Numbered from the stretch's first letter, positions 7,868-61,088 are shown. The stretch is 64,000 bases of DNA from Patescibacteria group bacterium (GCA_030549845.1 JAUQQN010000001.1:133668-197667); one strand, 5' to 3'. A program made the numbers and translations. The notes: generated from the sequence alone by a model not told the origin.

Positions 7868-9098
7868 TTATCTTGCCATTTCTCCAAATTTTTAAATTTA
7901 TAATATCTCCAACTTTTCTTGAAGTTATTTGTTGAGCTAAGGTATTTTGAGGAGTAATTTTTACACCATTAACTTCTAAGATAATATCTCCCTTTTTAAT
8001 GCCTGCTTTTTCTGCTGGAGAATTTGGTAAAACTGCAGGTTTTTTATCATCTTCAGAATAAACATATGCGCCATAGTCAAATGGAAGATTAAATTTCTTT
8101 TGGATTTCTTCTGTAACCAACAAATACCTTACACCTAAAAATGGTACCTCTACTTTTCCTTTTGTACTAAGATCATAAAGCATATTCTTTAATCTGTTAA
8201 CTGGAATAGCAAAACCAATATTTTCTGCTCCACTTACTATTGCAGTATTTATACCTATTACTTCACCCCTAAGGTTTATTAATGGACCACCAGAATTACC
8301 TGGATTTATTGCTGCATCTGTTTGAATTAACCCTTCTAACCTTTGAATGTTACCTAAATTGTCACTCGCTACAATATTTCTTCTAAGACCAGAAACCACT
8401 CCTACACTAACAGTATTTTGAAACTCTCCTAATGCATTTCCTATTGCTATTACTGTCTGTCCTAATTTTAATTTATTAGAATCTCCTAATTTCAAATAAG
8501 GTAAATTTGTGGCATTTATTTTAATTATTGCTAAATCATCAATAGGATGTAATGCTATTACTTTTCCTTTATATTTTCTCCCGTCATTCAAATAAACGGT
8601 GTATTCTGCATCTTTTTCATTTACAACATGTTTATTAGTAGCAATTAAACCATCAGAAGAAATTATAAATCCTGTACCTGCACCTATTTGTTTCTTTTCA
8701 GTACCTTTTTGTCTATATTGGGGAATTTGGAATTCAAAGAAAAATTGTCTAAATTCTGGAGGTAAATCAAATTCATCAAATGGGTTGATATAATATTTTT
8801 CAAATATTGGAACATCTTTACTAATTACAATACTAACTACAGCTGGAGATGATTTTTCAACTATTTCAGTTATCAATTTTTCATAATCAGCAACTGGTTT
8901 ATATTCTGGTATTTGCTCAAATATAGTTTCTGGCGTTTCTACTTTGATGTTTTGGATTTTCGGATTATAAATTAATTTTTTTAATGCATCGATTAGATTT
9001 TGCAAATTAGCTTGGGCAATTGCGAGATTGAATGAAATTATTAAAGCTACTATGGCTATTAAAGTAATGTAAAATATGTAATTTCTTATTCCTTTCAT
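7818..9098 (-). CDS. htrA: HtrA/DegP-family periplasmic serine endoprotease with C-terminal PDZ domain
   Basis: Signal anchor, trypsin-fold catalytic residues (NKHVV..., DAAINPGNSGGPL), PDZ-like C-terminus; 426 aa. Confidence 0.85.
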   Translation of the reverse strand: MKGIRNYIFYITLIAIVALIISFNLAIAQANLQNLIDALKKLIYNPKIQNIKVETPETIFEQIPEYKPVADYEKLITEIVEKSSPAVVSIVISKDVPIFEKYYINPFDEFDLPPEFRQFFFEFQIPQYRQKGTEKKQIGAGTGFIISSDGLIATNKHVVNEKDAEYTVYLNDGRKYKGKVIALHPIDDLAIIKINATNLPYLKLGDSNKLKLGQTVIAIGNALGEFQNTVSVGVVSGLRRNIVASDNLGNIQRLEGLIQTDAAINPGNSGGPLINLRGEVIGINTAIVSGAENIGFAIPVNRLKNMLYDLSTKGKVEVPFLGVRYLLVTEEIQKKFNLPFDYGAYVYSEDDKKPAVLPNSPAEKAGIKKGDIILEVNGVKITPQNTLAQQITSRKVGDIINLKIWRNGKIITLQAQLESLPSNLQD

Positions 9099-14503: not shown

Positions 14504-15793
14504 TTAATCTCTAAAAACAAATTCCAAAATTTCGTTCTGGCCTGGATCTGGACACCAATTAAGGGAATAAATACCTACTTCATTATCACCAACTGCTCTT
14601 CCATCAGAATAAACTCCATCAGTAATATAGTTACAATTAAATGGCCATGCTAAATGCTCTATAGTGCCATTATTATCTGTACCTCTGCTTGCTGTGCCGC
14701 CCTCCTTCCCACTAATCCAATTACCTGTTGCCGGGTTATATTTAATGTGAGGTATGATAGCTGCTTTATTAAACGAGCCTTTCCATATTTCATAATGACT
14801 TACTGTACAACCATCTTCATCGCCACAAAGTTCATGAAAGGCTGACATATCAAGTGGAATCGTAGTTTTAGTAAGTAATTTATGTCTTCTTACATAACTT
14901 ACTAATTTATTATTAACATATTTGTAGATATCTTCAGCTCCTTCAATTTTTTTAGTGTTTTTTGTAAGATTACTTGGAAGACTAGGAACAGTAAATACTT
15001 GGTCAGGGTTAGTATTTGGATCAGCTAAAGGAACATCTACTTGCATCCACCAATTTCTGTTACAGCCATAGTTATTCCCTAAAAATTGTCTTCCGGTTAA
15101 CCTCACGTCATTAGGTGTATTCCTATAAATTGCCCAAGGAAGGCCTAACCTACCTCCACCTCCATATCCTTTGCCTCCTGTTGCTCCAGTTATTACTACT
15201 GGTTCATCTTGAGCTACTTTGTCCCAATCCCACTCTATTATTAAGAAACTTTTAGTATCATCAAAGTAATAAGGTCCGCAGCTCCATTCTCCACCACACC
15301 TAAAATTAATATACCAATTTCCTCCCTCGCTATTGTCTAAATCAATATGAAAGCCAGACCCTCCTCCATTTAAATTAGTAAATCTTATCTGCCCTTTATT
15401 TCCTACTTTTTTATAAATATATAACCCAAACTCCTCGGCACATATAGGGCCATTAACATTGAATATAGCTCTATTTAAACCTCTCACAACAGTGTAATTT
15501 CCTCCACCTGATTTTTGACTATCTACATACTCTTTTGTTGCAACTTGTTCTGGCGGTGAGTTTTCAGAAGGAGTTTGAGTAAAAAGAGGAGCTAGTTCAA
15601 ATTGATTAGTTCTACCAGCAATTTTTTTCAAAAACTTAAATCCTTCGTTTGCTGTTTTAAATACTGTGTATTTTTGTTGGGTTTGTTGTGCTTTGATTTG
15701 AGGAAGTGGGATTGTTAATATAAGTAGGGTTAAGAAAGAAAGTAAGATTCCTGTAAAGATTCCTATAAGTATTTGCTTTTTATTGTTTTGCAT
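14504..15793 (-). CDS. secreted/surface hypothetical protein (N-terminal signal anchor, Gly/Trp/Cys-rich)
   Basis: Hydrophobic N-terminus MQNNKKQILIGIFTGILLSFLTLLILTIPLPQIKAQ; no known domain; AGTTATCCACAA motif lies 62 nt upstream. Confidence 0.45.
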   Translation of the reverse strand: MQNNKKQILIGIFTGILLSFLTLLILTIPLPQIKAQQTQQKYTVFKTANEGFKFLKKIAGRTNQFELAPLFTQTPSENSPPEQVATKEYVDSQKSGGGNYTVVRGLNRAIFNVNGPICAEEFGLYIYKKVGNKGQIRFTNLNGGGSGFHIDLDNSEGGNWYINFRCGGEWSCGPYYFDDTKSFLIIEWDWDKVAQDEPVVITGATGGKGYGGGGRLGLPWAIYRNTPNDVRLTGRQFLGNNYGCNRNWWMQVDVPLADPNTNPDQVFTVPSLPSNLTKNTKKIEGAEDIYKYVNNKLVSYVRRHKLLTKTTIPLDMSAFHELCGDEDGCTVSHYEIWKGSFNKAAIIPHIKYNPATGNWISGKEGGTASRGTDNNGTIEHLAWPFNCNYITDGVYSDGRAVGDNEVGIYSLNWCPDPGQNEILEFVFRD

Positions 15794-15854: not shown

Positions 15855-15866
15855 TTGTGGATAACT
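15855..15866 (-). promoter_or_regulatory. AGTTATCCACAA element (contains a perfect DnaA-box consensus TTATCCACA); copy 1 of 4
   Basis: Exact 12-mer shared with 29959..29970 and 35906..35917; lies upstream of a secreted-protein gene in the same relative orientation. Confidence 0.45.
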
Positions 15867-21181: not shown

Positions 21182-24100
21182 TTATTCTATCCAAATATTA
21201 ACTTTTCCAAAATTTTCATATTCGAATTCCCTTTCCAATTTAAATTTTTTAGAAACTCCAAATTTAAGGTTGCTTATATTTGTTTCTTTTTTAATTCTTA
21301 ATAGATTTTTTGAAATAATGTTTTTTAGGTTTTTAGGCAATAACATGGAAACATTTATAGGAGTTATAGGGATTAATCCTAAATCTTGTCTTAAATCTTG
21401 AATATATCTTATAAAATCATTTACTATTCCTTCTTCTTTAAGCTCTGGTGTTATTTCTTTATTAAGCCAAACATAAATAGGAGAGTCTGCAAATAAATAG
21501 TTTTCTTTATTTTTAGGCTCTCCAATTATTACTTTTTTAACATTTACTTCTTCTTTGATAAGTTCCAAATATTCTTCTTCTATTTTTTCTCCTAAATAAA
21601 CTTCTTTTAAGGGTTGCCTTACTTTTATTCCATTATTTTTTCTTAGCATCAAAATTTCTGATGTTATTTCTCTTACTTTTTTCATTTCTTTAAGTATTTC
21701 TTTTTCTTTTGTTGACAAATCTTTAGGGGGTAAAACTTTTTCTAAATGAACACTTATTTCTACCTTTTTTCTATCTTTCATTTCATTTTTTATCTCATGA
21801 TAAAGAAACTCACTAAAGAAAGGAGTTATTGGAGCAGAAATTTTTGCTATTTCAAAAAGATATTCTTCTAACTTCATCATAGCGATTTGTATTTCATTTT
21901 CATTTTTAGGTCTTTGGAACCTTCTTCTGCTCCTTCTTAGCCACCAATGAGATAAATCTTGAACTAAATTTACCAGTTCTCTACTTGCTTTTGTTGGATT
22001 GAAGTTATACAAAGATTCATAAACTATTTTATAAGCTTCTTTTAATCTCACATCAAACCATTTATCAATTATTTCTTTACTTTGATAATTTCTAATTTTT
22101 AATTTCTTTGGTTTTCTGTACATTCTATAAAAGTTAAAAATATTCAAAAGCAGATCAAAGTAATTTCTCTTTAGGTTTATAAGCTCTTCTTCTATGAATC
22201 TTTTATTATCAGCAGATTCACTTACATAAACAAAGTAAAACCTTAAAAGATCAGCTCCGTATTTTTCGATGGCCTCCATAGGATCTACAACGTTTCCCAA
22301 TGACTTGGACATTTTTCTTCCCTCCTTATCTAAAACTAAGCCCAAAGAGACTACATTTTTGTAAGTTTCCATTTTCTTTATCAAATACCCTATAACTAAC
22401 AAAGTATAAAACCAACCCCTTGTTTGATCTATTCCTTCCACAATAAAATCTATAGGGAATAAAATTCCTTCATCTATTTCTTTTTTATTTTCAAATGGAT
22501 AATGAAAAGATGCAAAAGGAACACACCCTGAGTCAAACCAAATATCTGCTAAGTCTTCTATTCGTTCTTTTAATCCTCCACATTTACATTTCCATTTAAA
22601 TTTATCCACATAAGGCCTATGAATATTTATTTCATTATTTTCATCTCTTGGCAAAATTAAAAGTTCAATTTCTTTATATTCCCCAGGTTCGAAGTTAAAT
22701 TCTTCATTTTCTGCTGTTTGTTTTTTAGAAAGCCCTTGCATTTCTCCACAAAGAGCCCATAAAGGATCCTGATGTGATACTATTAAGATTGTTTTTCCTT
22801 CATACTTTTCTTCCAAATCTAAAATTACTGATATCATTCTTTTTCTTACATCATCCAAACTTTCACCATTTTCTGGGGCTTTGAAATACTGATCATATTG
22901 ATCTTCATAAAGCTTATCATATTCTTTTATTGATTTACCGTTTAATACACCAAAATCTATTTCTCTTAACCTTAGATCTACAATAATCGGAACTCGTAAA
23001 ATATTAGAAAGTATTTCTGCAGTTTGCTTCGTTCTTAAAAGTGGTGAAGTTACAATAAAGTCGATATTCTTCTTCGCTAACTCTTTAGCCACCTTCATTA
23101 TTTGTTTTTCTCCATTCGAGGTCAATGGGTTAAAGAAAACTTCAGGGTAGGAAGATAGTAATTCTTTTACATTACTTATGGCTTCTCCATGCCTTAAAAG
23201 AATGTATTTATTTTTTGATTTGAAATGTTGAGCAAGCTCCTTTAAACTCCCTATAACTTCTATTGAACCACAGCTATTACATTTCCATATAGGAAGAGGT
23301 ATACCCCAAACCCTTGTTCTTGATAGATTCCAATCTTTTCCTTCCTTAAGCCATTCATAAAATCTACCACTTCCAATTTCTTTTGGATACCAATTTATTT
23401 TTTCGTTAATTTTTAATAGCTTATCTTTAAATTTAGATACTTTAATCACCCAATTTTTTGTTGAATAATAAATAAGCGGTGTTTTACATCTCCAACAATG
23501 GGGATAATCGTGTTCATATCCAGTTAAATTTGCATAGAGGATTAAATTTCTTTCTTTTAAGTCTTCAACAATATATGGATCTGCATCTTTAAAAAATAAA
23601 TTATTTATTTTACTACTAATAAAAGCTGGTTCATCAAAATTAAAAATTCCTGACTCGTTTATTGGATTTATTAGAGGAAGATTATATTTTTTACTTAATT
23701 CAAAATCCTCTTCACCAAATGCAGGAGCTATATGAACTATTCCTGTACCTTCGTCTTCTTTTACGAATTCTGCTAAATAAACTTTAAATGCATTTTCATA
23801 ATTTTCTATATTTTCTGGAGGATAAAGAGGTTCATATTCTAAACCTTCTAGTTCTTTGCCTTTTATTTTTTTAATCTCTATTCCTTTAAATCCCTGAGGA
23901 AGCCTTAAAGATATTAGAATTTCTTCATTTAAGTCAAATACTTTATATTCATACTCTGGATGTATTGCTAAAGCTATATTTGAAATTAACGTCCATGGGG
24001 TTGTTGTCCAAACTAAGAAATAAATTTGTTTTTCAGAAAATTCTTCTAAAAAGTGTGGAATGTTTTTCAACTTAAACTTAACATAAATATCAGGATCTAA

Positions 24101-24688
24101 AACTTTTTTATAAGCATCAACTTGTCCTACTTCGGCTTGAGAAAGGACGGTTTCGCATCTTGGGCAATAAGGAAAAACTTTATATTCTTCTTTTAAGTAC
24201 CCTTGATCATAAATCTTTTTAATAATCCACCAACAGGATTCCATGTAAAATGGATCATAAGTGATATAAGCATTTTTATGATCAATCCAAAATCCCATCA
24301 TTTCATCCATTTTCTCCCATTCATTTTTATATTTCATAACAAGCTCTTTACATTTTGCATTAAATTTATCAATTCCATATGAAAATATATCTTTTTTTGT
24401 TTTAAATCCTAAAAATTTTTCAGTGGCAACTTCTATAGGAAGTCCGTGCGTATCCCATCCTGCCCTTCTTTCAGCATATTCACCAATCATTGTTCTAAAT
24501 CTTAAAATAATATCTTTATAAACTCGGGTAAGAAAATGCCCGATGTGAGGTTTATCATTAGCATACGGAGGACCTTCAACAAAAACAAATCTTTTATTTT
24601 TTATATTTCTTTTTAAGCTTTCTTTAAAAATATTATTTGATTTCCAAAAATTTATTATTTTCTTTTCCAATTCACTTAGATTTAGCAT
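21182..24688 (-). CDS. ileS: isoleucine--tRNA ligase with an inserted histidine-phosphatase (PGAM-like) domain
   Basis: HIGH-region PPYANDKPHIGH, GWDTHGLPIE, WGIPLPIW, WFDSG, KMSKS (RKMSKSLGNVVDP). A ~195-aa insertion (aa ~495-690) carries LLRHGEAISN and VSHQD motifs of the histidine phosphatase superfamily; it sits between CNSCGS and CKCGG. 1168 aa. Confidence 0.85.
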   Translation of the reverse strand: MLNLSELEKKIINFWKSNNIFKESLKRNIKNKRFVFVEGPPYANDKPHIGHFLTRVYKDIILRFRTMIGEYAERRAGWDTHGLPIEVATEKFLGFKTKKDIFSYGIDKFNAKCKELVMKYKNEWEKMDEMMGFWIDHKNAYITYDPFYMESCWWIIKKIYDQGYLKEEYKVFPYCPRCETVLSQAEVGQVDAYKKVLDPDIYVKFKLKNIPHFLEEFSEKQIYFLVWTTTPWTLISNIALAIHPEYEYKVFDLNEEILISLRLPQGFKGIEIKKIKGKELEGLEYEPLYPPENIENYENAFKVYLAEFVKEDEGTGIVHIAPAFGEEDFELSKKYNLPLINPINESGIFNFDEPAFISSKINNLFFKDADPYIVEDLKERNLILYANLTGYEHDYPHCWRCKTPLIYYSTKNWVIKVSKFKDKLLKINEKINWYPKEIGSGRFYEWLKEGKDWNLSRTRVWGIPLPIWKCNSCGSIEVIGSLKELAQHFKSKNKYILLRHGEAISNVKELLSSYPEVFFNPLTSNGEKQIMKVAKELAKKNIDFIVTSPLLRTKQTAEILSNILRVPIIVDLRLREIDFGVLNGKSIKEYDKLYEDQYDQYFKAPENGESLDDVRKRMISVILDLEEKYEGKTILIVSHQDPLWALCGEMQGLSKKQTAENEEFNFEPGEYKEIELLILPRDENNEINIHRPYVDKFKWKCKCGGLKERIEDLADIWFDSGCVPFASFHYPFENKKEIDEGILFPIDFIVEGIDQTRGWFYTLLVIGYLIKKMETYKNVVSLGLVLDKEGRKMSKSLGNVVDPMEAIEKYGADLLRFYFVYVSESADNKRFIEEELINLKRNYFDLLLNIFNFYRMYRKPKKLKIRNYQSKEIIDKWFDVRLKEAYKIVYESLYNFNPTKASRELVNLVQDLSHWWLRRSRRRFQRPKNENEIQIAMMKLEEYLFEIAKISAPITPFFSEFLYHEIKNEMKDRKKVEISVHLEKVLPPKDLSTKEKEILKEMKKVREITSEILMLRKNNGIKVRQPLKEVYLGEKIEEEYLELIKEEVNVKKVIIGEPKNKENYLFADSPIYVWLNKEITPELKEEGIVNDFIRYIQDLRQDLGLIPITPINVSMLLPKNLKNIISKNLLRIKKETNISNLKFGVSKKFKLEREFEYENFGKVNIWIE

Positions 24689-29026: not shown

Positions 29027-29917
29027 CTATTCACGAATCTGTCCAGGTTCACATCGAAGACCTTGGCCAGAGCATACAGAAGTACTAGTATTCACCCATC
29101 TGTTTCGAGTTTCATCATAATATTGGCAAAAACCGAGAAAGCATCTAAGTCTAAGAGGAGGACTTACCGTGATAGTAGAAGTATTTGAAACTTGTTGAGT
29201 ATTTGATTTTAAATATAATGAATAAGTGCCTGTAGGAACTCCATTTAAACTTAAAGTTCTTGTTACAAAAATATTATTAATATTATTGATAAAGTCATCA
29301 GATCGAATTGAAGGAAAGAGTGTAAAACCAGTTGAGTATGGAGAAATGCTAGGATCCGCCGGAACTGGTAAATTTGAAGGACAATAAGCCTTATTGCTAT
29401 AAATTGTATAAGTTATAGTAGAAGTAGATTGTGTAGTAGTTGATTCAGGTTCAAGTTTATAATACCAGCCTCTATTACTTGCTGGTACTACAAAAAAGCT
29501 TGCTGAAGCAGATTGACTGTCTTTTTTATAAGTAATAGTTACTGTTGAATATTGTGATCCTGGATTTGTAAATACTCCTTCTATTATGCAATCCGTACTA
29601 GAGACATATCCTCCTATTTGATCACATTTTCCAGAAGTTGAATATTGATTTATAGTTAAACTTAGATTTCCACCGCTCCCACCCACTAATTTTATCCTAA
29701 AAAGAGTTCCGCTTGCTACAGTAGATTTAATATTTGTTTTATAAATATCATCTGAGATTGCATTTTCTATTTCAATCCCTTGATCATTAGGAGAAGAAAG
29801 TGCATAAATTTCTATACCAATGCCATTTGCAGCTTTAGCAAAATAAAAATTTCTATAAATTAAGAAAGTAGTTATCAAAAGTAAAATTCCTAAAATGATA
29901 TAAATTTTACTTTTCAT
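29027..29917 (-). CDS. secreted Ser/Thr-rich hypothetical protein with C-terminal Cys cluster
   Basis: Signal peptide MKSKIYIILGILLLITTFLIYRNFYFAKA; AGTTATCCACAA motif 42 nt upstream. Confidence 0.45.
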   Translation of the reverse strand: MKSKIYIILGILLLITTFLIYRNFYFAKAANGIGIEIYALSSPNDQGIEIENAISDDIYKTNIKSTVASGTLFRIKLVGGSGGNLSLTINQYSTSGKCDQIGGYVSSTDCIIEGVFTNPGSQYSTVTITYKKDSQSASASFFVVPASNRGWYYKLEPESTTTQSTSTITYTIYSNKAYCPSNLPVPADPSISPYSTGFTLFPSIRSDDFINNINNIFVTRTLSLNGVPTGTYSLYLKSNTQQVSNTSTITVSPPLRLRCFLGFCQYYDETRNRWVNTSTSVCSGQGLRCEPGQIRE

Positions 29918-29958: not shown

Positions 29959-29970
29959 TTGTGGATAACT
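29959..29970 (-). promoter_or_regulatory. AGTTATCCACAA element, copy 2 of 4
   Basis: Exact 12-mer; in the divergent intergenic region between the 29027..29917 secreted-protein gene and the Mur-ligase-like gene. Confidence 0.45.
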
Positions 29971-32337: not shown

Positions 32338-32601
32338 TTATGGAAACTTAGGAACTTCTTTTACCTCTAAAAATGAAAGTATGATAACAGGAATAGTATA
32401 AGAAGTTATGAGGATAATTAGGCCTAATAAAATCCAAGGTAAAAATTTCTTTGCCTCATCTAGCTTTTTGTGATATATTGCTAAAACCCCTAAATAAATA
32501 AAAGAAGCAGATGAACCTAAAATTATCAAAACTTGCATTATTTTTATGATCCTTAAAAGAATTATTCTTATCTCATCCATATTATTTAAAAGAAGGTACA
32601 A
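32338..32601 (-). CDS. small two-helix membrane protein, pilin-like hairpin module family (VirB2/TrbC-like), paralog 6
   Basis: 87 aa, two hydrophobic helices separated by a short charged loop (HKKLDEAKK); pattern shared with five neighbouring genes. Confidence 0.45.
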   Translation of the reverse strand: MYLLLNNMDEIRIILLRIIKIMQVLIILGSSASFIYLGVLAIYHKKLDEAKKFLPWILLGLIILITSYTIPVIILSFLEVKEVPKFP

Positions 32602-32839
32602 ATGTTTGTATTGTTTTTAAAATTATTTCTTTATTTAGAAATACTAAACTTATTAAAATTAATCCCAATATTATATAAATTAATGCTTTTTTAACTTCAC
32701 CAAAGTTTTTCGATGAAAAATATGTCTTTATACCTAAATAAATTATAAAAAAACTAGAAATAAGTAGAGCGAACTTTAATAAAAAATTGGTTAAATTTTC
32801 CAAAATAGAGAGAATTTTATCCAAAAATGGAAAATACAT
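32582..32839 (-). CDS. small two-helix membrane protein, pilin-like hairpin module family, paralog 5
   Basis: 85 aa; FALLISSFFIIYLGIKTYFSSKNFGEVKKALIYIILGLILISLVF; same module. Confidence 0.45.
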   Translation of the reverse strand: MYFPFLDKILSILENLTNFLLKFALLISSFFIIYLGIKTYFSSKNFGEVKKALIYIILGLILISLVFLNKEIILKTIQTFVPSFK

Positions 32840-33123
32840 TACTTAAAGAAAGAAATTAGGATAGCTTGAATAGAAAAGGATGCGATTATTAACACTAATC
32901 CTACAATAATTAGTGGAACTTCTTCTTTAAATCCTTTCCCTGGATTTACCATATATTTAAAGCCAGAATACATTAAAATACCTATACCACTTACCATTCC
33001 TATCCAATAAAAAATATTAATTACTCCAATGAGTTTACAAATAAAATAATTTATGCCTTCTTGCTGAGCACAACCTATTTCCCCTCTAAACCTAATTGCT
33101 TGGGCAAAAACTAAGCTTATCAT
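32839..33123 (-). CDS. small two-helix membrane protein, pilin-like hairpin module family, paralog 4
   Basis: 94 aa; ...GCAQQEG...IFYWIGMVSGIGILMYSGFKYMVNPGKGFKEEVPLIIVGLVLIIASFSIQAIL. Confidence 0.45.
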   Translation of the reverse strand: MISLVFAQAIRFRGEIGCAQQEGINYFICKLIGVINIFYWIGMVSGIGILMYSGFKYMVNPGKGFKEEVPLIIVGLVLIIASFSIQAILISFFK

Positions 33124-34772
33124 AAACCTAATATTTGCTTAATGATATTCCAACCACTACCTCCAGGTGTATAAATTTTCCCTGTTTCTATATCGAAGAC
33201 TTGACTAAACGGCTTATCTGGAAATTCTGAATTTGTAATTTCAACTTCACATTGGCCTTTATAATCATAAAATTGAATATATAAAAATCCTAATGTATTA
33301 CCTGGAGGAGAAATATATTTAGGAACTCTATATAGAGATTTTCCCTTTTCATAACTCAAGGTTATTTGGAAATCTCTGTTAAACAGGTATAAAGAAGTTG
33401 CCTTTGTTTTATCAAAATTAAAACTTGAAACACTTGTTCCCCTCATAACCCCATATAATGTACAATTCCCATTTTTTTTAGGAGTAGGTTGAACTTCATA
33501 TTCTATATACATTGAAAAAGGAGGTTGATATATATTCCTTTGCAAAACTGTGATTCCTAATAACTGCTCTAAAGCATCTTTCAAGTTATCGGGCATTTCT
33601 ACCCTTATATATTGAGAAGCATAAATTATAAGTTTGTCTCCTTTTATTGTTAATTTTGGTAGCTCCTCAACAACAACTTCAACTTTTGGTCGATATTGAA
33701 TATCAAGATAGGTAATATTCAAATTACAGTTATTTGATTGGAATGCAACTCTTACAAAATCACCTGGCTCAATATGGTTCCCTAGCTCAGCTTCTATATA
33801 TTGGGAACCAAAAATATTAGGTTCTATTTTTGAAAACAAATTTTTACCTTTTGTTTTATTGTAAAAAGTAAGCGTTAATTCACATGTATCCTTAGAAGAA
33901 ACAAAAACAAAAAATCTTCCATTTTCATCTATTTTTGCAGTATTTGTATCTATTATTAGAGTACCAGAAGCAGTGCCACTAGGTAAAATAGATTGAGTAG
34001 TATCTGGAATGGGTTGAGTAATATCTGGAATAGGTTGAGCAGTGTCTGTAGTAATTGGACCTAGTTCAGAAGGTGGTTGTAATGCTAAACCACCTGTTAA
34101 CCATCTTTCTACTCCAATAACAATCGTAAATGAAACAATTCCTACTACAATACCTATTATCCCCCATTGGACTCTTTTATGAACATCACTAACTTGGCTA
34201 GGTTTTGTAATATATAAAATGCCAGCCCACATTAAAAACAAAACCCCTAAAGCTAGAGATAAGGTATATAATATCCTTAAGCCTTTATCAAAAAGAAACA
34301 ACAAACATTGACCAATTCCTCTTTCGCATTCACGAATAGTAGGAAATCCTCTTAGATATTCTGATGGAGCTATATATAATTTTTCCAGCTGACCATTTTC
34401 TATTTGTACATTCAATACTTTAAATCCTCGGTATTGTTGTAAACTAGGAGGTGGATCTATTAAAATTAATTCTGCTGCCTCTATTATTAAGTTACTCCAA
34501 TTTCCGTAAGTCTCTCTAACTGCATCATTGACATTTATGTTAGGATCTGTACTTTCAATGCTATTACCTCTAACCTCGAATGTTCCTTCACCATATCTAT
34601 TATTCAAAAGCTCAGCCATTTTTTCTCTTATCAAACGCCTTAAACCTTCATCTACATTTATTCCCTGCACTGTCTTTATGCCCCATTGAAAAGGATTAAA
34701 ATATTGAGTAACTTGAGCAAAAGTGATATTACTGAATATTAGCAAAATAACTAAAAGTAAAATTTTTTTCAT
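33120..34772 (-). CDS. secreted 550-aa protein with embedded pilin-like hairpin module (aa ~165-225) and QPIPD(I/T)TQ tandem repeat
   Basis: Signal peptide MKKILLLVILLIFSNITFA; internal segment GIGQCLLFLFDKGLRILYTLSLALGVLFLMWAGILYITKPSQVSDVHKRVQWGIIGIVVGIVSFTIVIG matches the paralog module; 21-nt tandem DNA repeat at 33999..34040. Confidence 0.45.
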   Translation of the reverse strand: MKKILLLVILLIFSNITFAQVTQYFNPFQWGIKTVQGINVDEGLRRLIREKMAELLNNRYGEGTFEVRGNSIESTDPNINVNDAVRETYGNWSNLIIEAAELILIDPPPSLQQYRGFKVLNVQIENGQLEKLYIAPSEYLRGFPTIRECERGIGQCLLFLFDKGLRILYTLSLALGVLFLMWAGILYITKPSQVSDVHKRVQWGIIGIVVGIVSFTIVIGVERWLTGGLALQPPSELGPITTDTAQPIPDITQPIPDTTQSILPSGTASGTLIIDTNTAKIDENGRFFVFVSSKDTCELTLTFYNKTKGKNLFSKIEPNIFGSQYIEAELGNHIEPGDFVRVAFQSNNCNLNITYLDIQYRPKVEVVVEELPKLTIKGDKLIIYASQYIRVEMPDNLKDALEQLLGITVLQRNIYQPPFSMYIEYEVQPTPKKNGNCTLYGVMRGTSVSSFNFDKTKATSLYLFNRDFQITLSYEKGKSLYRVPKYISPPGNTLGFLYIQFYDYKGQCEVEITNSEFPDKPFSQVFDIETGKIYTPGGSGWNIIKQILGL

Positions 34773-34773
34773 T

Positions 34774-35427
34774 TTAATGAGTTAAACTAAATTCAATTGC
34801 TTTAACAATTGAAAAAGCAGCAACTGTAAAAATTGCTCCGATTATTGCCCAAGTAATATAATTCCAACCTTCTCTATCGCCTGGTTTTAAATATAACTTC
34901 ATTCCTCCATAAATTATAAAACCTATTGCTGAAAGCATAGATACAGTATACAGAACTGTTAAAATTTTAGTAATAAACCAAAGAAAGCATCTTCCTAATA
35001 AGCCAGGTGGGGTAGGTTTTCCTCCTAAGATATCAAAAATATTTATTCCTGTGCAATTAATTCTCGGAGGTTGAAAACTTAATTGTTGAGCATAAGCTAT
35101 ATTAAATATAAAATCTATTCTCCAATTAGAGACCGTATATTCAATAAGTTTAACTAATCCCCAAGAAATTAAAGCTAAAGCTAAACCTAAAGAAGCCCAA
35201 ATTAATCTATTCTTTACATCTTGTTGTGCTTTTTGGGCTTGAACTATAAGAATTATTCCTGCCCACATAATCATAATTACAGCCAATGCACCAGAAAGCC
35301 ATGTCAAAATTTTTAATGCAACATAAAAAACTAATAAAGCACAAGAAGTTAAATCTTGGCAAATAACTGGAACAGGAAAAATTCTATTGCTAAATATCCC
35401 AAAATCTGGATTAAATGGATAAGGCAT
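34774..35427 (-). CDS. membrane protein with two tandem copies of the pilin-like hairpin module
   Basis: 217 aa; module a: ...TSCALLVFYVALKILTWLSGALAVIMIMWAGIILIVQAQKAQQDVKNRLIWASLGLALALISWGLVKLIEY; module b: ...GRCFLWFITKILTVLYTVSMLSAIGFIIYGGMKLYL...WNYITWAIIGAIFTVAAFSIVKAIEF. Confidence 0.45.
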   Translation of the reverse strand: MPYPFNPDFGIFSNRIFPVPVICQDLTSCALLVFYVALKILTWLSGALAVIMIMWAGIILIVQAQKAQQDVKNRLIWASLGLALALISWGLVKLIEYTVSNWRIDFIFNIAYAQQLSFQPPRINCTGINIFDILGGKPTPPGLLGRCFLWFITKILTVLYTVSMLSAIGFIIYGGMKLYLKPGDREGWNYITWAIIGAIFTVAAFSIVKAIEFSLTH

Positions 35428-35447
35428 TCAATTTATTTTTATTATTT

Positions 35448-35828
35448 TTAAAATCCAGGCTGTCCTGTAACTACAAGATTTTCTACAAACTTAACTACAG
35501 CCCAAGCAAGTAATGCTATAGCCAAACCAGCTGCTCCGTATATCAACCTATTTTTACCTTCATCAATTTTTGCTTGGATTATAACTTGTATTCCTCCCCA
35601 AATTATGTATATAACTGCAAAAGCACCTGCTGCCCACATTAGAATTCTTAAAACCCATGTAAAGACTTGTAAAAGAACTTCACCTAGAGTTCTTCCTTGT
35701 AAAAAACCAGATTCTGGTGGTAGTTCGCGTATAGGCCATTCTCCTCCTTGCCCATAAACTAAGCCAAGGTTTCCTAAAAATAAGATTAATAGTAAAATTG
35801 CACTTAATCTAAGGGTTTTTTTACTCAT
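35448..35828 (-). CDS. signal-peptide-bearing pilin-like protein (VirB2/TrbC-like), first gene of the cluster
   Basis: 126 aa; signal MSKKTLRLSAILLLILFLGNLGLVYG|QGG, then LQVFTWVLRILMWAAGAFAVIYIIWGGIQVIIQAKIDEGKNRLIYGAAGLAIALLAWAVVKFVENL; AGTTATCCACAA motif 78 nt upstream. Confidence 0.5.
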   Translation of the reverse strand: MSKKTLRLSAILLLILFLGNLGLVYGQGGEWPIRELPPESGFLQGRTLGEVLLQVFTWVLRILMWAAGAFAVIYIIWGGIQVIIQAKIDEGKNRLIYGAAGLAIALLAWAVVKFVENLVVTGQPGF

Positions 35829-35905
35829 TTTATTAATTTAAAATTAATGCGACCTAGTTTTAATTAAAAAAATTTTAAACCATTCAATATCTTCTTTTTC
35901 AAAAA

Positions 35906-35917
35906 TTGTGGATAACT
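35906..35917 (-). promoter_or_regulatory. AGTTATCCACAA element, copy 3 of 4
   Basis: Exact 12-mer in the divergent region between the pilin-like cluster and comM. Confidence 0.45.
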
Positions 35918-53384: not shown

Positions 53385-54635
53385 ATGAAAATAGAAGAGT
53401 TAAAAAACAGAATAGAATTTGAAATACAAAAACCTATTTCTGAAATTTCTATTATAAATTTAGTTCAAGATTTGATAAGTTATTGTTACAAAGCAAGAGC
53501 TTCAGATATACACATAGAACCCCAGGAAAATCAATTATTAATAAAAGCAAGAATTGATGGTATTATCCATGAACTTTTTACCTTTCCTAAAGAAATTCAA
53601 GATGAAATAATCTCACGAATAAAAATATTATCAGGCCTTAGAACAGATGAACACTACACACCACAAGATGGACGTTTTAAGTTTTTTGACTCCTATTCAA
53701 ACTCAGAATTTGATATACGGGTTTCTATTATGCCTACATATTTTGGAGAGAATGCTGTTTTAAGATTATTAGTATCAAAAGAGACATCTTTTACCTTAGA
53801 AACTCTTGGCTTTTCTGAAAGGGATTTAAAAGAAGTTAAAAAAGCTATTAAAAAACCTTATGGTATGATACTTGTAACGGGACCTACTGGCTCTGGTAAA
53901 ACTACTACTTTATATACGATATTAAAAACTTTAAATACAGGAGCTGTTTCTATAATTACATTAGAAGATCCAATTGAATATTCCATACCAGGTATCACAC
54001 AAATACAAGTTAATCCTCAAGTAGGTTTAGTTTTTAGTACTGGTTTAAGAGCTATTTTAAGACAAGATCCTGATATTATCATGGTTGGTGAAATAAGAGA
54101 TGAAGAAACAGCAGATATTGCTGTCAATGCTGCCTTAACTGGACATTTACTTTTGTCAACTTTACATACAAATGACGCAGCAACTGCTTTACCAAGACTC
54201 TTAGAAATGGGAGTGGAACCTTTTTTAATTGCTTCTACGGTAAATATAGTTATAGGACAAAGATTAGTACGAAAAATTTGTGAAAACTGTAAACAAGAAA
54301 GAAAATTCACAACAACAGAAATATTATCATTTTTAGAAACTATTGGATTAGATCTTACGTTAGAAAATATTAAAGAAATTAAAAAACAAAAGTTTTATAT
54401 AGGAAAAGGATGTGAATTATGTAATAATACTGGATATTATGGAAGATTAGGGATATTCGAGGTATTGCCTATCACTGATAAAATAAGAACAGCTATCATG
54501 AAAAGGTCAGATAGCAATGAAATAAAGTCTATTGCTGTTTCTGAGGGTATGAAAACAATGATTCAAGACGGTTTTGATAAAGTAGTAAAAGGTCTTACAA
54601 CTATAGAAGAAATTCTAAGAGTTATTCATGAATAA
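53385..54635 (+). CDS. pilB: type IV pilus assembly ATPase PilB/GspE family (with tetracysteine Zn finger)
   Basis: Walker A GPTGSGKTTTLYT, Asp box, His box, CENC...CELC zinc finger typical of PilB/GspE rather than PilT; 416 aa. Confidence 0.8.
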   Translation: MKIEELKNRIEFEIQKPISEISIINLVQDLISYCYKARASDIHIEPQENQLLIKARIDGIIHELFTFPKEIQDEIISRIKILSGLRTDEHYTPQDGRFKFFDSYSNSEFDIRVSIMPTYFGENAVLRLLVSKETSFTLETLGFSERDLKEVKKAIKKPYGMILVTGPTGSGKTTTLYTILKTLNTGAVSIITLEDPIEYSIPGITQIQVNPQVGLVFSTGLRAILRQDPDIIMVGEIRDEETADIAVNAALTGHLLLSTLHTNDAATALPRLLEMGVEPFLIASTVNIVIGQRLVRKICENCKQERKFTTTEILSFLETIGLDLTLENIKEIKKQKFYIGKGCELCNNTGYYGRLGIFEVLPITDKIRTAIMKRSDSNEIKSIAVSEGMKTMIQDGFDKVVKGLTTIEEILRVIHE

Positions 54636-55692
54636 AAAACCTTTTTTTCTAAGAATTTCTTTAAATGAGAAAATACTATTTGTTAGAAATTTATCGATGC
54701 TGTTAAAAAGCGGTATTAGCATTGTTGAAGCCTTAGAGATTTTAAAAAATAACACAAAATCTAAAACTTTAATTTATATTCTAAACGAAACTATTTCAGA
54801 TGTTCAAAGAGGGCAATTTTTATCAAATAGTTTAAATAAATTTAAAAATGTATTTGGTGAGTTTTTTGTAAATATAATTAGGGTAGGAGAGCTTACGGGG
54901 AAGCTCCCCGAAAATCTAGACAAATTAGCTGATGAGTTAGCACAAATAGGAGCTTTGAAAAGAAAAATTATTACTACCATGATTTACCCAACTTTCATAA
55001 TAACAACAATGGTAGTTTTAGTAATTTTCGTTTTGTATTTTGTTTTTCCTAAAATATTACCTATCTTCGAAAATCTAGGAGTAGAATTGCCTCTTACTAC
55101 TAAAATTTTTATAAAGGTTTCTTATTTTTTAATAAACAATACAACTGAGCTGATAATTTTTTTAATTATATTTATTTTATCATTTTTTATTGCCTTAAGA
55201 TTTCCTAAGTCAAAATTTTATATTGATTTATTTTTATTAAATCTACCATTGCTTTCGGATGTAATTAAAAAATATATTCTTGCTGAATTTTCTAGGATAT
55301 TAAGCTTATTATTAGGAAGTGGGCTTAAAATAGTAGAAAGCATAGAAATTGCTGGAAATGCTTTAACTAATAATGTATATAAAAAAATTTTAATAGATGT
55401 TTCATCAAATGTTTTATCGGGCTATCCTTTAAATGAGTCTTTAGAAAAATTTCCAAAATTATTTCCTTATAATTTTGTAAAGATGATTGAAATTGGCGAA
55501 AGAACAGGAAATCTAGAAAAAAATTTAAGATACTTATCCCAAAACTTTGAGGAGGATGTAGACACATTTTTAGAAAGATTTATAAATATATTAGAGCCTT
55601 TAATATTAGTAATTATCGCAGCAACAATTGGTTTTATGGCAATTTCTATTATACTACCAATATATGAATTATCAGAAAAAATCCAACCTTAG
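54628..55692 (+). CDS. pilC: type IV pilus platform protein PilC/GspF family
   Basis: T2SSF-domain polytopic membrane protein; translationally coupled to pilB (8-nt overlap); 354 aa. Confidence 0.75.
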   Translation: MNKKPFFLRISLNEKILFVRNLSMLLKSGISIVEALEILKNNTKSKTLIYILNETISDVQRGQFLSNSLNKFKNVFGEFFVNIIRVGELTGKLPENLDKLADELAQIGALKRKIITTMIYPTFIITTMVVLVIFVLYFVFPKILPIFENLGVELPLTTKIFIKVSYFLINNTTELIIFLIIFILSFFIALRFPKSKFYIDLFLLNLPLLSDVIKKYILAEFSRILSLLLGSGLKIVESIEIAGNALTNNVYKKILIDVSSNVLSGYPLNESLEKFPKLFPYNFVKMIEIGERTGNLEKNLRYLSQNFEEDVDTFLERFINILEPLILVIIAATIGFMAISIILPIYELSEKIQP

Positions 55693-57424
55693 TTTTACGT
55701 TTTTAGAAATTTTAATAACCATTGTTTTTATAGTGCTTTTAGGGTATTTTATATACGGAGCTTTTATAAATTTTTTAAAAATGACAACATCTTTAAGGCT
55801 TACACTTCAGGCTTTAAATATTTTAGAAAGTGAATTAGAAATAATAAGAAATATGAAGTATGAAGACATTGGTATAAAAGATGGCTATCCAAGAGGTAAA
55901 CTTGAAAGAAAAAAATATATAAGTTTAGGCAACTTAAACTTTGTGGTTTCTTATTATATAAGAAATATAGATGATCCTTTTGATGGCACGGTTACTTCAA
56001 CTCCTCAAGATTTAGCTCCTGCTGATTATAAGCTGGTTGAACTAGAAATAGAATGCCTCAATTGTGGGGTCAAATTTAAACCTCAAAAATTAACAACCTT
56101 AGTAGCGCCTAAAAATTTGGAAGTGACTACAAACAATGGATCTTTATTTATTAAAGCGATAAACTCAAAAGGTGAACCTATACCACAGGCTAAGGTTATT
56201 GTATTAAATAAGCAAATAAATCCACCTATTTTAATTGAAGATTATACAAATAATGATGGCATTTTACCATTAATAGATATACCTACAGGAACTAATGCTT
56301 ATGAAATTACAATTAATAAAGATGGATATTCAACAGAAAAAACTTATACTCCAGGTGATCCAGAAAACCCCAACCCTCTCAACCCTCATGCAACCGTAAA
56401 AGAGCAAACTTTAACCGTAGTTACATTAGCTATAGATAAGTTAAGTAATTTGAGAATAAATACAAAAGATAAATTCTGCAGACCCATAGGAAATATTAAT
56501 TTAAGAGTCAGTGGAACAAAATTAATTGGTAAAAATCCTGATGTTATAAAATTTTCAACCACTACTTCTACAAATATTGATGGCACAAAATTTTTACAAA
56601 ATATAGAATGGGATGAATATAATTTTTCTATCTTAAGCAATGGATACATATTAAGAGGCAGCAACCCTATTTGGCCCCTAGTTGTTCTTCCAAGTACTAC
56701 TAAAGATGTTGATTTAATTTTAATACCAAAAGAAACCACCTCTTCTAATTTATTAATAGAAGTGATTGATTCAAATAGATTACCTATTAAATTTGCATCA
56801 GTTACCTTATCTAGTGGTAACTATAGTTCAACATTAATTACAAATACAGAAGAGTATTATGAAAATAACTGGTTAGAAAATTATTCTCAAAAATCAGAAA
56901 ATATAGAAATTGATAGTAATGGTTATATAAAATTAAAATATTTGACAGATGGTTATCCAACTAATACACAAGAGTGGTTAATATCTAATACTATTGATTT
57001 TGGATCAAGAACTGATTTATTAAAAATAAACTGGGATGGAGATGAAGCTTCACAAACAGACATAAAATTACAAATTGCAGTAAATAATGATAACTCTACT
57101 TGGAATTTTATAGGACCAGATGGCACCTCAAATTCATATTTTGAAGAAAAAGAAATTTCCAGTCTTTCTTTATTTACAAATTTTAGGTATTTAAGATATA
57201 AAGTTTATTTACAAACTTTTGATCCTCAACAAACGCCTATTTTTAAATACATCAATTTCCAGTTTTCTTCGGATTGTTTACCGCCTGGTCAGGTTTTATT
57301 TAAAAATTTAAATATAGCTACATATCAATTAAAAGTAGAAAAGGAAGGCTATCAAACATTTTTATCAAATATAGATTTATTAGAAAGTTTTAAACAAATT
57401 ATTGTAAACCTCAGCCCGCAATGA
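55664..57424 (+). CDS. large prepilin-like protein (class III signal-like N-terminus SNLS|FTFLEIL; ~587 aa)
   Basis: ATG at 55664 (the ORF track starts at TTG 55628); FTFLEILITIVFIV matches the prepilin N-terminal methylation/helix motif; overlaps the pilC 3' end by 29 nt. Confidence 0.5.
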   Translation: MNYQKKSNLSFTFLEILITIVFIVLLGYFIYGAFINFLKMTTSLRLTLQALNILESELEIIRNMKYEDIGIKDGYPRGKLERKKYISLGNLNFVVSYYIRNIDDPFDGTVTSTPQDLAPADYKLVELEIECLNCGVKFKPQKLTTLVAPKNLEVTTNNGSLFIKAINSKGEPIPQAKVIVLNKQINPPILIEDYTNNDGILPLIDIPTGTNAYEITINKDGYSTEKTYTPGDPENPNPLNPHATVKEQTLTVVTLAIDKLSNLRINTKDKFCRPIGNINLRVSGTKLIGKNPDVIKFSTTTSTNIDGTKFLQNIEWDEYNFSILSNGYILRGSNPIWPLVVLPSTTKDVDLILIPKETTSSNLLIEVIDSNRLPIKFASVTLSSGNYSSTLITNTEEYYENNWLENYSQKSENIEIDSNGYIKLKYLTDGYPTNTQEWLISNTIDFGSRTDLLKINWDGDEASQTDIKLQIAVNNDNSTWNFIGPDGTSNSYFEEKEISSLSLFTNFRYLRYKVYLQTFDPQQTPIFKYINFQFSSDCLPPGQVLFKNLNIATYQLKVEKEGYQTFLSNIDLLESFKQIIVNLSPQ

Positions 57425-59127
57425 AGTTAAAAAAGTTTTTTTTAATTTTTTTTATTTTAATACTTCCGATTTTTTGCAAAGCTGAAAAAGTTTTTGAGTA
57501 TTTTTCTCATTCTCCGCGAACTACTAATAAGCTAGATTTAAATTTAGTAGAAGAAATTAAGCAAGAAATAAAAATATTTGATGATAATCTAAGTAAAATT
57601 TATCTTTGGATAGATAACCCGGGTACAGCTAATGAAGTGAATATTCAACTTTTTGAAGAAGACCATTTATTATTCAGTAAGACCATCAATATTCCCCAGG
57701 TAAAAGGAGGTTATTTTGGTTATAAGTTTGGAATAGATTTAGGAAAGAATTTAAAAATAGAAAGCGGAAAAAATTATCATTTATCAATAAAAAATTTAAC
57801 CAAAGATGAAATGTATATCTACTATACAAGCAAGATAGAGATTTTACAAGGAGAAGAAAAAGAAGGCATTTTACCAATCTCCTTAGGTAAATTTTTGATA
57901 AATGGAAAAGAGTATGCTTATTCTTTGAAAATAGCGCTTGCTGAATCTTTGGAACAAGATGTGCCTAAATTATTTAATCCACAAATAGAAATTGAAAGTC
58001 CTTATAAAGTTTATCTTTTATTCAATTCAAACGAACCGATAAAATATAAAGTTATCTATTGGGATGTGAATAGAAATGAAACTTATTTAATCCCTTCAAA
58101 TCCTTATTTAGAAAATTGTTTTATAGAAACGAAAAAATGTAAAATAAGTATTTATACGAATCATAACACTTATTATAAATTCCAAATTTCTATAATAGAT
58201 TATTGGGGCAATTTCAAAACTTATGAAGGGGAATTTGTAACCCCCTTAGATCCTACTATTTCTACTTCAACAATTTCTACTTCAACAATAAAAATTAATG
58301 ATACATTACCCCCTCAAATTTCTAATTTTCAAATAAAAGAAATAACTTCCAATAATATAATAGTCTCTTTTGAAACAAATGAATTTGCACTTAGTTCTCT
58401 TAAAATTTTTTATAAAGATACAGGTGTTATAGTGATGGAAATAAGAAATAGTATGTTTAATTTATATCATGAAATAAGCGCATTGAATTTACTTTTCCCT
58501 AACTTAGAATACGAAGGAGTAGTTTATGTAGAAGACATATTTAAAAATAAAAATGAATATAAATTTAGCTTCAAAACTAAAGAAGGTAAAACTTCTCAAT
58601 CTTTAGATAAATTTTTATCTCAACCTAAAATTTTAGAAATTAATGTAATAAATGAAGGAATTGAATCTAGCTTAAAAACCCCAGATATTGAAATTAATTA
58701 CGACCAAAATTTAAATAAAATGAATATCAAAACAGATTCCAATAATTTAAAAATTAATTTCATTAAAAGACCAGAGGTTTCTATTTTTAGTTATTCTATC
58801 AAAGAAGGAAGTTATGATTTGGATTTAAATATTTTCTCTCCTGGGGTTTATAATTACCTAGCTTATCAAGAGCTCCGGCCTAACATAAAACAAATTCTAA
58901 AATCTGGTGAAATTGAAATAAAAAGCAAAGAAATTAAGGAAATTTCTTCGGAAAAAATAGAAACAAAAAATAATACAGAAATTAAAATAAAAGAGGGTTC
59001 TCCAAAAATAATTCAACCTTTGCCTGCTTCAGAATCTGTTTCATCTCATAAAAAAATTATTTCAATTATCGGAATAATTGTGATTTTAAGTTTGTTATTA
59101 ATCTTATTTTTGATAAAAAGAAAATGA
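57421..59127 (+). CDS. cell-surface protein with signal peptide and C-terminal TM anchor, ISTST tandem repeat
   Basis: MKLKKFFLIFFILILPIFCKA signal; C-terminal IISIIGIIVILSLLLILFLIKRK; 15-nt tandem DNA repeat near 58258..58290. Confidence 0.4.
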   Translation: MKLKKFFLIFFILILPIFCKAEKVFEYFSHSPRTTNKLDLNLVEEIKQEIKIFDDNLSKIYLWIDNPGTANEVNIQLFEEDHLLFSKTINIPQVKGGYFGYKFGIDLGKNLKIESGKNYHLSIKNLTKDEMYIYYTSKIEILQGEEKEGILPISLGKFLINGKEYAYSLKIALAESLEQDVPKLFNPQIEIESPYKVYLLFNSNEPIKYKVIYWDVNRNETYLIPSNPYLENCFIETKKCKISIYTNHNTYYKFQISIIDYWGNFKTYEGEFVTPLDPTISTSTISTSTIKINDTLPPQISNFQIKEITSNNIIVSFETNEFALSSLKIFYKDTGVIVMEIRNSMFNLYHEISALNLLFPNLEYEGVVYVEDIFKNKNEYKFSFKTKEGKTSQSLDKFLSQPKILEINVINEGIESSLKTPDIEINYDQNLNKMNIKTDSNNLKINFIKRPEVSIFSYSIKEGSYDLDLNIFSPGVYNYLAYQELRPNIKQILKSGEIEIKSKEIKEISSEKIETKNNTEIKIKEGSPKIIQPLPASESVSSHKKIISIIGIIVILSLLLILFLIKRK

Positions 59128-61078: not shown

Positions 61079-61088
61079 TTATCCACTA
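61077..61088 (+). promoter_or_regulatory. AGTTATCCACTA element, copy 4 of 4 (one mismatch to the other three)
   Basis: Lies 89 nt upstream of the pilA ATG, in the same relative orientation as copies 1-3. Confidence 0.4.

Follow-up and report, generated by a model that had tools for sequence, protein, structure and literature searches.

A six-gene array of VirB2-like (PF18895) pilin modules between comM and iscS in a patescibacterial genome

VirB2-like pilins encoded in tandem are already known in Patescibacteria. A search of 3,035 genomes of Patescibacteria by Quinonero-Coronel et al. (2025; PMC12102498), based on PF18895, PF04956 and the CONJScan models, found such pilins in 1,948 VirB4-containing assemblies, near virB4 in 1,135 of these; 441 VirB2 arrays of 2–11 genes each were described, with a mean identity of 25% and a maximum of 54%. 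In Southlakia epibionticum ML1, transposon sequencing showed that epibiotic growth requires the cluster SEML1_0006–0019, which encodes a type IV secretion system (T4SS; Wang et al. 2023; PMC10633639), and a six-gene pilin array sits inside this cluster (PMC10633639; PMC12857230). Here, we describe an array of six genes, g1–g6, located at positions 32338–35828 of a 64,000-nt stretch of DNA from an ultra-small, uncultured Patescibacteria (CPR) group bacterium (GCA_030549845.1 JAUQQN010000001.1:133668–197667); the whole stretch is referred to as the window hereafter. The locus is a further example of the already described patescibacterial VirB2-like pilin arrays and not a new kind of system.

The array consists of six open reading frames (ORFs) on the minus strand, which together carry seven copies of a module of about 75 aa, each a two-helix hairpin (Table 1). 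All six ORFs were present where a first-pass annotation, made from the sequence alone, had placed them, and only the start of g6 was corrected. The ATG at 32580 is used by the gene callers on identical public contigs and, as an equivalent Met, by every orthologue; it is likely the start, in preference to the TTG at 32601. The bare hairpins had been put at 85–94 aa, which is right for g4 and g5, but not for g6 when counted from this ATG. The genes are closely packed: g1 and g2 are separated by 20 nt and g2 and g3 by 1 nt, g3 and g4 overlap by 4 nt (ATGA) and g4 and g5 by 1 nt, and g5 and g6 are again 1 nt apart. Directly downstream of g6 lies iscS (a gap of 0 nt), and on the other side comM and g1 are divergent, with a spacer of 107 bp between them. 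Both neighbours, as named in the first-pass annotation, were borne out by a Pfam scan that covered all 54 ORFs of 120 aa or more in the window, in which the unknowns were scanned again at E ≤ 1. When the array was scanned for consensus promoters and terminators, no signal above shuffled sequences was obtained, and no internal terminator was found. A promoter in the comM/g1 spacer would drive all six genes as one transcript, since the spacing is 0–20 nt, some genes overlap, and a conserved promoter element (described below) is present.

The reality of the repeated module was examined by phmmer, with each array protein as the query and all 175 ORFs of 40 aa or more in the window as the database. 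The matches were exclusively other array members: g1–g2 (E = 1e-16 to 1e-20), g2–g3 (1e-10), g2 module b–g4 (2e-7), g5–g6 (5e-6) and g4–g6 (4e-4), with g6 also joined to g2 module b. The other polytopic membrane proteins of the window were never matched. Three features were found among the modules. One is that 27 modules from four genomes, and likewise the seven modules of the window, align in one register, in which two glycines are invariant. Another is a signature composed of [IM][IM][WY]xG at the end of helix 1, a loop rich in Lys, Asp and Glu, and G[LIV]...[SA][FWY] in helix 2; the pairwise identity among the modules is 22.7% on average and 44% at maximum. The last feature is that Cys pairs are conserved ahead of helix 1 in both modules of g2, in g3 and in g4. 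Placement by a hidden Markov model (HMM) assigned two modules to g2 (aa 22–105 and 144–217) and one to g3 (aa 149–228), and g2 also has two stretches matching PF18895, in agreement with the earlier description of one gene with two modules. The hydropathy, the AlphaFold2 models of g1 and g3 and the in-register alignment all fit two hydrophobic helices with a short charged loop. The mutual matches and the shared register thus confirm the seven copies in six paralogous genes, and their similarity, confined to the array among the window ORFs, exceeds hydrophobic chance.

Regarding the family, two genes score above the gathering threshold of PF18895 (T4SS_pilin; 26.6 bits), g1 with 35.0 bits and g2 with 46.2 bits, while g3 (19.3 bits) and g5 (19.8 bits) score below it. 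For g4 and g6 no Pfam match was found; they are tied to g2, g3 and g5 by phmmer or the module HMM. Because g1 and g2 pass the gathering score, the array is assigned, at the level of sequence profiles, to PF18895. In IMG, the g1 orthologues are named 'type IV secretory pathway VirB2 component (pilin)', so the earlier reading of a VirB2/TrbC-like two-helix hairpin agrees with current annotation. The further claim that the family could not be placed in any described system, and was a candidate novel filament, is wrong, because such arrays had already been published (PMC12102498; PMC10633639; PMC12857230). A search of PHROG, holins included, gave no match at E ≤ 0.01, and together with the PF18895 match this speaks against an unrelated family such as holins. 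The weak matches of g5 and g6 to other Pfam and NCBIfam families were sub-threshold and mutually inconsistent.

The relation to the classical VirB2/TrbC pilins is less direct. None of the six genes reaches the gathering score of PF04956 (TrbC/VirB2; 27.9 bits); g5 comes close with 25.7 bits (E = 1.4e-5), followed by g2 with 12.7 bits. We searched 1.84 billion representative sequences with a profile of the seven modules, and this gave 13,208 proteins at E ≤ 1e-3, of which 322 reach E ≤ 1e-10. Five proteins, P0075, P0076, P0077, P0124 and P0183, were scanned, and three of them pass the PF04956 gathering score. P0075, P0124 and P0183, which are among the best matches, carry 8–11 PF18895 domains and score 51, 145 and 84 bits, respectively, with PF04956. 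Since these multi-module relatives pass both models, they form a transitive bridge from the array to VirB2/TrbC; this bridge and the architecture are what point to the relation. It was also observed that the PF18895 family holds many polypeptides with 2–15 tandem modules (for example, one of 1775 aa with 15 matched stretches), and that most of the 150 best profile matches carry at least two modules. Such 'poly-pilins' are absent from the discussion in the 2025 survey of patescibacterial T4SSs (PMC12102498), and they prompt one to ask how an assembly from fused modules could work. Word-indexed homologue searches returned close relatives only (12–42 proteins).

The array is conserved beyond the window. 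Its gene order and flanks (divergent comM, g1–g6, then iscS, a Mur ligase gene and the gene for TsaD) are kept in four diverged relatives: L003 and L005, which are metagenomic, and L008 ('Candidatus Paceibacter sp. KUB_Bin06') and L009, which are species-representative metagenome-assembled genomes (MAGs). The comparison that the first-pass annotation had proposed thus came out in favour of a conserved six-gene array. The protein identities to the window are 73–78% for comM and 75–78% for iscS, and for the array they are 45–50% (g1), 60–64% (g2), 39–47% (g3), 41–55% (g4), 48–54% (g5) and 61–65% (g6). The ratios of nonsynonymous to synonymous substitution rates (dN/dS) range from 0.08 to 0.44 over all six genes, g1 and g3 being the fastest, with 0.10–0.22 for g5 and 0.08–0.19 for g6. 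In the L003/L009 pair, for which dS is about 0.55, the ratios are 0.38 (g1), 0.14 (g2), 0.35 (g3), 0.14 (g4), 0.10 (g5) and 0.08 (g6), against 0.10 for both comM and iscS. Because these ratios are low, all six can be taken as real genes under purifying selection.

These data bear on the possibility that the resemblance among the six proteins is compositional only, and that they are unrelated hydrophobic peptides, holins, transporter subunits or non-genes. It is true that g4 and g6 lack a Pfam match, and that transmembrane similarity does give false matches. A candidate relative, L010 (Limnocylindria MAG contig DASWCU010000056.1, 9965–11290), was the weakest match of a scan of the genome collection with the g1 alignment (tblastn E of about 1e-5), and it was rejected, since it proved to encode a major facilitator superfamily (MFS) transporter. 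It is a transmembrane-helix false positive, and family counts made at lenient E-values therefore need care. Against this, the modules match only each other among the 175 ORFs, two glycines and one register are kept in 27 modules, the gene order is conserved under purifying selection, no PHROG match exists, and g1 and g2 pass PF18895. The compositional explanation is largely refuted, and we give it hardly any credence.

Comparison with the described systems shows where this locus is ordinary and where it departs from them. The published patescibacterial arrays (PMC12102498) are like the present one in PF18895 membership, in phylum, and in having at least two divergent paralogues, which in the survey had to be in tandem or at most one gene apart; the identities here are those given above. 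Two or three of the six genes here would pass the published HMM criteria, and the present array includes one double module and one 550-aa fusion to an ectodomain, an architecture undiscussed in that survey. The array of S. epibionticum has six genes as well; unlike it, the present array is at least about 28 kb away from any T4SS gene on either side, between comM and iscS. This detached location is within the published variation, because the pilins are near virB4 in only 1,135 of 1,948 assemblies. VirB2 (the Agrobacterium T-pilin) and TrbC (of RP4) share with it two hydrophobic helices with a short basic loop and a small size, and the signal of g1, as predicted, would be cleaved before Gln as theirs is. 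They differ in their leader of about 47 aa, as compared with a 26-aa signal here, and in being single genes rather than several paralogues; in addition, the present host is a monoderm, the array is not beside virB3/virB4, and direct profile similarity is not significant. Tandem VirB2 genes of Bartonella and Anaplasma, as far as they are cited in PMC12102498, resemble the present array in being amplified and diverging pilin genes that vary in exposed parts, a pattern that would be compatible, by analogy, with diversification driven by host range or evasion. As cited there, they differ in belonging to PF04956, in lying in or beside virB loci of intracellular animal pathogens, and in having no fused modules or ectodomains. 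Finally, g2 resembles the Mbov_0395 family (NF045849, a pilin-like conjugal transfer protein of Mycoplasma integrative and conjugative elements), a small two-helix protein of the T4SS of wall-less or monoderm cells. Its score (29.7 bits, E = 3.9e-7, two stretches) falls short of the cutoff of 40, which leaves g2 outside this family, and the context of that family is a mobile element, whereas it is chromosomal and housekeeping here.

Of the six genes, g1 has the VirB2 layout of a signal peptide and two helices. Its signal reads …LVYG↓QGGE and resembles the A-x-A↓Q sites of the VirB2 proteins used for comparison, the cleavage being predicted by eye, and the AlphaFold2 model of g1 is a hairpin. 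The 'long' VirB2-style leader ascribed to it earlier turned out to be an ordinary Sec signal of about 26 aa; g3 also has a signal peptide, while g2, g4, g5 and g6 have none. The sibling strain L001, which comes from the same source samples (SRR21619495, SRR21619497), matches the window at 99.5% identity over 16.8 kb, with 97 differences. About 58 of them are located in g1 and the g1/g2 spacer. In g1, 13 of the 19 differing codons are non-synonymous, and the amino-acid changes are confined to aa 28–55 (the tail following the signal) and aa 117–126 (the C-tail), while the helices and the loop are unchanged. The loop, QAKIDEGKNRLI, is also the same in the strain variants of g1; 10 g1 homologues were aligned. 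By contrast with g1, the 550-aa g3 is identical in the two strains. In the structures solved for F- and T-pili, the pilin has both its termini pointing outward, and its loop lines the lumen. The pattern of variable tails and an invariant loop in g1 fits this geometry, as judged by analogy. The g1/g2 spacer is 20 nt long in the window strain (35428–35447) and 44 nt in L001 (9302–9345), and this 24-nt indel lies beside the hypervariable C-terminus of g1, which suggests that the 3′ end of g1 and the spacer were exchanged by recombination, not altered by point mutation. A second hotspot between the strains was seen at 29503–29557 in the gene for a 296-aa secreted protein (13 substitutions in 55 nt, with aa 121–125 changing from SQYST to VTPQR); this gene has the same upstream element as the pilin array.

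The anatomy of g2–g4 is also informative. The linker between the two modules of g2, predicted to lie outside, holds a conserved motif, (I/V)(A/V)YAQQL.F.P. This motif is similar to the sites for signal peptidase in g1 and g3, as well as to the …VFAQ at the N-terminus of g4, and one may speculate that it is cleaved. In g4, this short N-terminal VFAQ motif is accompanied by a Cys pair before helix 1. The 550-aa secreted protein with an embedded module, noticed in the first-pass annotation, is g3. Its module is the most conserved segment among 14 homologues, while the linker varies in length, and some relatives hold an extra segment of about 100 aa there. The AlphaFold2 model of g3 has a mean predicted local distance difference test score (pLDDT) of 67, the domains having scores of 75–89 (the alpha/beta domain about 85), and the helices of the module span aa 153–189 and 197–226. 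A Foldseek search with this model gave generic tandem folds of the immunoglobulin (Ig)-like, MG and transglutaminase-C kinds only, with template modelling (TM) scores of about 0.13, and no functional lead. Because the hairpin would be N-out/C-out, both extra domains of g3 would be extracellular. The adhesin-like look of g3 comes from the module being embedded between the alpha/beta domain and two beta-sandwich domains, and on the basis of the model, g3 is a candidate pilin-module-anchored adhesin or tip subunit.

Taken by analogy with the described systems, the array probably encodes PF18895 pilins serving a monoderm-type T4SS encoded elsewhere, in which g1 would be the main pilin, g2 and g4–g6 minor ones, and g3 the adhesin-like one. 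The products would be inserted into the cytoplasmic membrane as one or two hairpins, with the tails outside and the short Lys/Arg-rich loop inside, a topology drawn from the signal peptides, the hydropathy and the charge distribution. The main building block would be g1, because of its Sec signal, its position as the first gene, its invariant loop, and its exposed tails that vary between strains. The double-module g2, together with g4–g6, would provide minor or initiating subunits, and the module of g3 would act as an anchor in the membrane or filament, displaying the alpha/beta domain and the two Ig-like beta-sandwich domains on the exterior as an adhesin-like tip or side subunit. The division into a major subunit and minor or tip subunits, as proposed earlier, is reasonable. 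A VirB4/VirB6/VirB3(PrgI)/VirB8-type machine encoded elsewhere would pull the subunits out of the membrane and polymerise them into a pilus or a short conduit. This structure would be used by the bacterium, presumably an epibiont, for contacting its host cell or for transfer in either direction between the two. The steps past membrane topology, pilus formation included, are what we infer from known systems.

Several results weigh against this reading. Homologues of VirB4, VirB6, VirB3, VirB8 and VirD4 were not found among the 54 ORFs of at least 120 aa in the window, and the 20-kb contexts of the four relatives contain no T4SS gene, so that the array is detached there too. The earlier observation that no VirB4/VirB11/VirD4 ATPase is adjacent thus holds for the whole window, in which the Walker-A proteins of at least 250 aa are FtsH, ComM, PilB, an amidase and MreB only. 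Comparison by hhalign with eight annotated plasmid VirB2/TrbC proteins gave a probability of 0.2, an HMM search of the same eight gave at most 8.3 bits, and the seven-module profile found only a chance ribosomal match (E = 1.2) among all PDB sequences. It is also not obvious how family members in which up to 15 modules are fused would fit the simple polymerisation of monomers. Moreover, no patescibacterial T4SS pilus has been seen so far, and a FEMS review speaks only of the 'potential to elaborate conjugative pili' (PMC12857230).

In one alternative, the modules would be associated with a T4SS but would form no filament. The hairpins might then stay stacked in the membrane, either within the translocation channel or platform or as a patch where the cell touches its host, with g3 as a membrane-anchored adhesin. 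With 2–15 fused modules (4–30 transmembrane helices), many polypeptides of the family have the appearance of polytopic membrane proteins rather than of pilins that could be extracted, and g2 is itself such a fusion, of two modules. T4SSs of the Gram-positive type are generally without pili (PMC10633639), and no patescibacterial one has been imaged (PMC12857230). On the other hand, g1 has the VirB2 layout of a signal peptide and two helices, its variable tails and invariant loop match the solved conjugative pili, and fused modules could still pack as adjacent subunits because both termini are on one side. We regard the non-filamentous arrangement as unlikely, but as deserving more weight than the alternatives that dispense with VirB4.

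Those alternatives require the regulatory element upstream of g1 to be described. The 12-nt element AGTTATCCACAA occurs in the window in three exact copies and one copy with one mismatch (that of pilA), against 0.33 expected, and precedes four genes: g1, the gene for the 296-aa secreted protein (29027–29917), the gene for a 429-aa secreted protein (14504–15793), and pilA. A −35-like hexamer with a 17-nt spacer follows each copy after 3–5 nt; the copy at g1 lies in the comM/g1 spacer 3 nt upstream of the −35-like TTGAAA (35902–35897). The claim that g1 and pilA have this upstream 12-mer in common is therefore correct as to its presence at both, but the copy at pilA is not exact. The element holds a perfect DnaA-box 9-mer, TTATCCACA. 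A 10-nt core, TTATCCACAA, is kept upstream of the g1 orthologues in L003, L005, L006 and L009, and also at the orthologous promoters of the 296-aa protein, while the synonymous sites of the relatives are near saturation. AGTTATCCACAA is probably the operator of a surface-structure regulon, and the binding protein could be DnaA or another protein. A second element, GGTCG(A/C)(A)ATTAA(G), was seen in the 5′ untranslated regions of g1 (about 35844–35854, minus strand), of pilA (about 61142–61154, plus strand) and of the g1 orthologue in L003 (about 8910–8922), 25–35 nt before the start codons; the TTAA/AATT repeats flanking it might pair.

The same window contains a complete-looking type IV pilus (T4P) cluster, whose pilA product begins with MKTKKAFTLIE, a class III signal. 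In addition to the genes in Table 1, this cluster encodes a 598-aa CarboxypepD_reg/PEGA protein, a 568-aa secreted protein with a C-terminal anchor, a 463-aa unknown protein, and a 188-aa minor-pilin-like protein with weak N_methyl and T2SSJ matches. A self-contained surface system without VirB4 could be imagined, in which hairpins inserted by Sec/YidC anchor and display the g3 ectodomains, or in which another apparatus, such as the T4P machinery, assembles them. The full T4P cluster, the upstream element common to pilA and two secreted-protein genes, and the lack of T4SS genes in 64 kb and in the 20-kb contexts of the four relatives are in its favour. However, the family adjoins virB4 in 1,135 of 1,948 patescibacterial assemblies (PMC12102498), the class III motif G↓FTLIE, which the T4P machinery requires, was sought in g1–g6 and found in none, and a common promoter element means co-regulation, not co-assembly. 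Such a system therefore appears very unlikely to us. An extended form of it would be an autonomous surface organelle of this Paceibacter-like lineage uncoupled from VirB4, with g1 as the shaft or membrane lattice, g3 as a new class of pilin-anchored adhesin, and co-regulation with the T4P via a DnaA-box-like operator at an origin-proximal promoter; we rate this as a long shot, of much the same low standing. In a broader version, PF18895 poly-pilins of up to 15 modules may be assembled unlike known conjugative pili. The T4SS-served pilin array remains our preferred reading.

Table 1. Coordinates of the array, its parts and related features (positions in the window unless a relative is named)
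Feature	Position (nt)	Strand	Length or aa range	Remark
g1	35448..35828	(-)	126 aa	candidate major pilin
g1 Sec signal			aa 1-26	VYG↓Q
g1 N-tail			~20 aa	variable
g1 helix 1			aa 48-83	
g1 loop				QAKIDEGKNRLI
g1 helix 2			aa 88-121	
g1 C-tail				variable
g2	34774..35427	(-)	217 aa	tandem double module
g2 module a	35113-35364	(-)	aa ~22-105	
g2 module b	34777-34998	(-)	aa ~144-217	
g3	33120..34772	(-)	550 aa	secreted, one embedded module
g3 signal			aa 1-20	…TFA↓Q
g3 alpha/beta domain			aa 34-136	
g3 module	34089-34328		aa 149-228	
g3 linker			aa 227-267	disordered
g3 beta-sandwiches			aa 270-360, 373-530	
g4	32839..33123	(-)	94 aa	single module
g5	32582..32839	(-)	85 aa	single module
g6	32338..32580	(-)	80 aa	single module; listed ORF extends to TTG at 32601
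AGTTATCCACAA element	15855-15866	(-)		
AGTTATCCACAA element	29959-29970	(-)		
AGTTATCCACAA element	35906-35917	(-)		
AGTTATCCACAA element	61077-61088	(+)		
Element in L003	8855, 15114			
Element in L005	8868, 14821			
Element in L009	9894			
Element in L008	16259			
T4P cluster	53385-61626			
PilB	53385-54635			T2SSE
PilC	54628-55692			T2SSF
pilA	61177-61626			

The remainder of the window is occupied largely by housekeeping genes, which include those for FtsH, PBP2, MreBC, GyrB, DprA, IleRS, NusA, TsaD and a Mur ligase as well as IscS, ComM, PGK, GAPDH, PolX and SecF; a scan with Rfam gave two tRNAs and nothing else. In the IleRS gene (21182–24688, minus strand, 1168 aa), a domain of the histidine-phosphatase superfamily (PF00300; aa 496–657, E = 6e-39) splits the catalytic domain, and this insertion is kept in L003 and L005 (1172 aa). 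The cumulative G−C minimum of the window is at 36,000, in the comM/g1 spacer, and the genes to the left are mostly on the minus strand and those to the right mostly on the plus strand. Patescibacterial T4SS genes are often origin-proximal (PMC12102498), and the present array could be so as well. However, dnaA and dnaN are absent from the window and the comM/g1 spacer has a single DnaA box.

As for the host, the syntenic relatives are named Ca. Paceibacter sp., Ca. Pacebacteria, Minisyncoccia and Parcubacteria, and the window has a GC content of about 28% and bacterial housekeeping genes. Judged from these, the host belongs to the Patescibacteria and is a member of Minisyncoccia/Paceibacteria. 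Public contigs with exact or near-exact copies of the genes (P0018, P0022 and P0027–P0029) carry archaeal names (Methanomethyliaceae, Pacearchaeota and Nitrososphaerota). These contigs are probably mis-binned, because the MreB, PBP2, sigma-70, NusA, SecF and Mur ligase are bacterial.

A large part of bacterial diversity belongs to the Patescibacteria, which live attached to host cells, and in the one species tested the T4SS with its pilin array is essential. The overall picture of these arrays is unchanged by the present locus; what it adds are minor details. Standard HMM cut-offs undercount the members of an array, calling two or three of the six here. Double modules can occur in arrays, as can the fusion of a pilin module with adhesin-like ectodomains, and a promoter element can be common to the array and the T4P pilin gene. 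At the strain level, it is the tails of the first subunit, predicted to be exposed, that diversify. The locus is thus useful for annotation and for the choice of targets in structural and genetic work.

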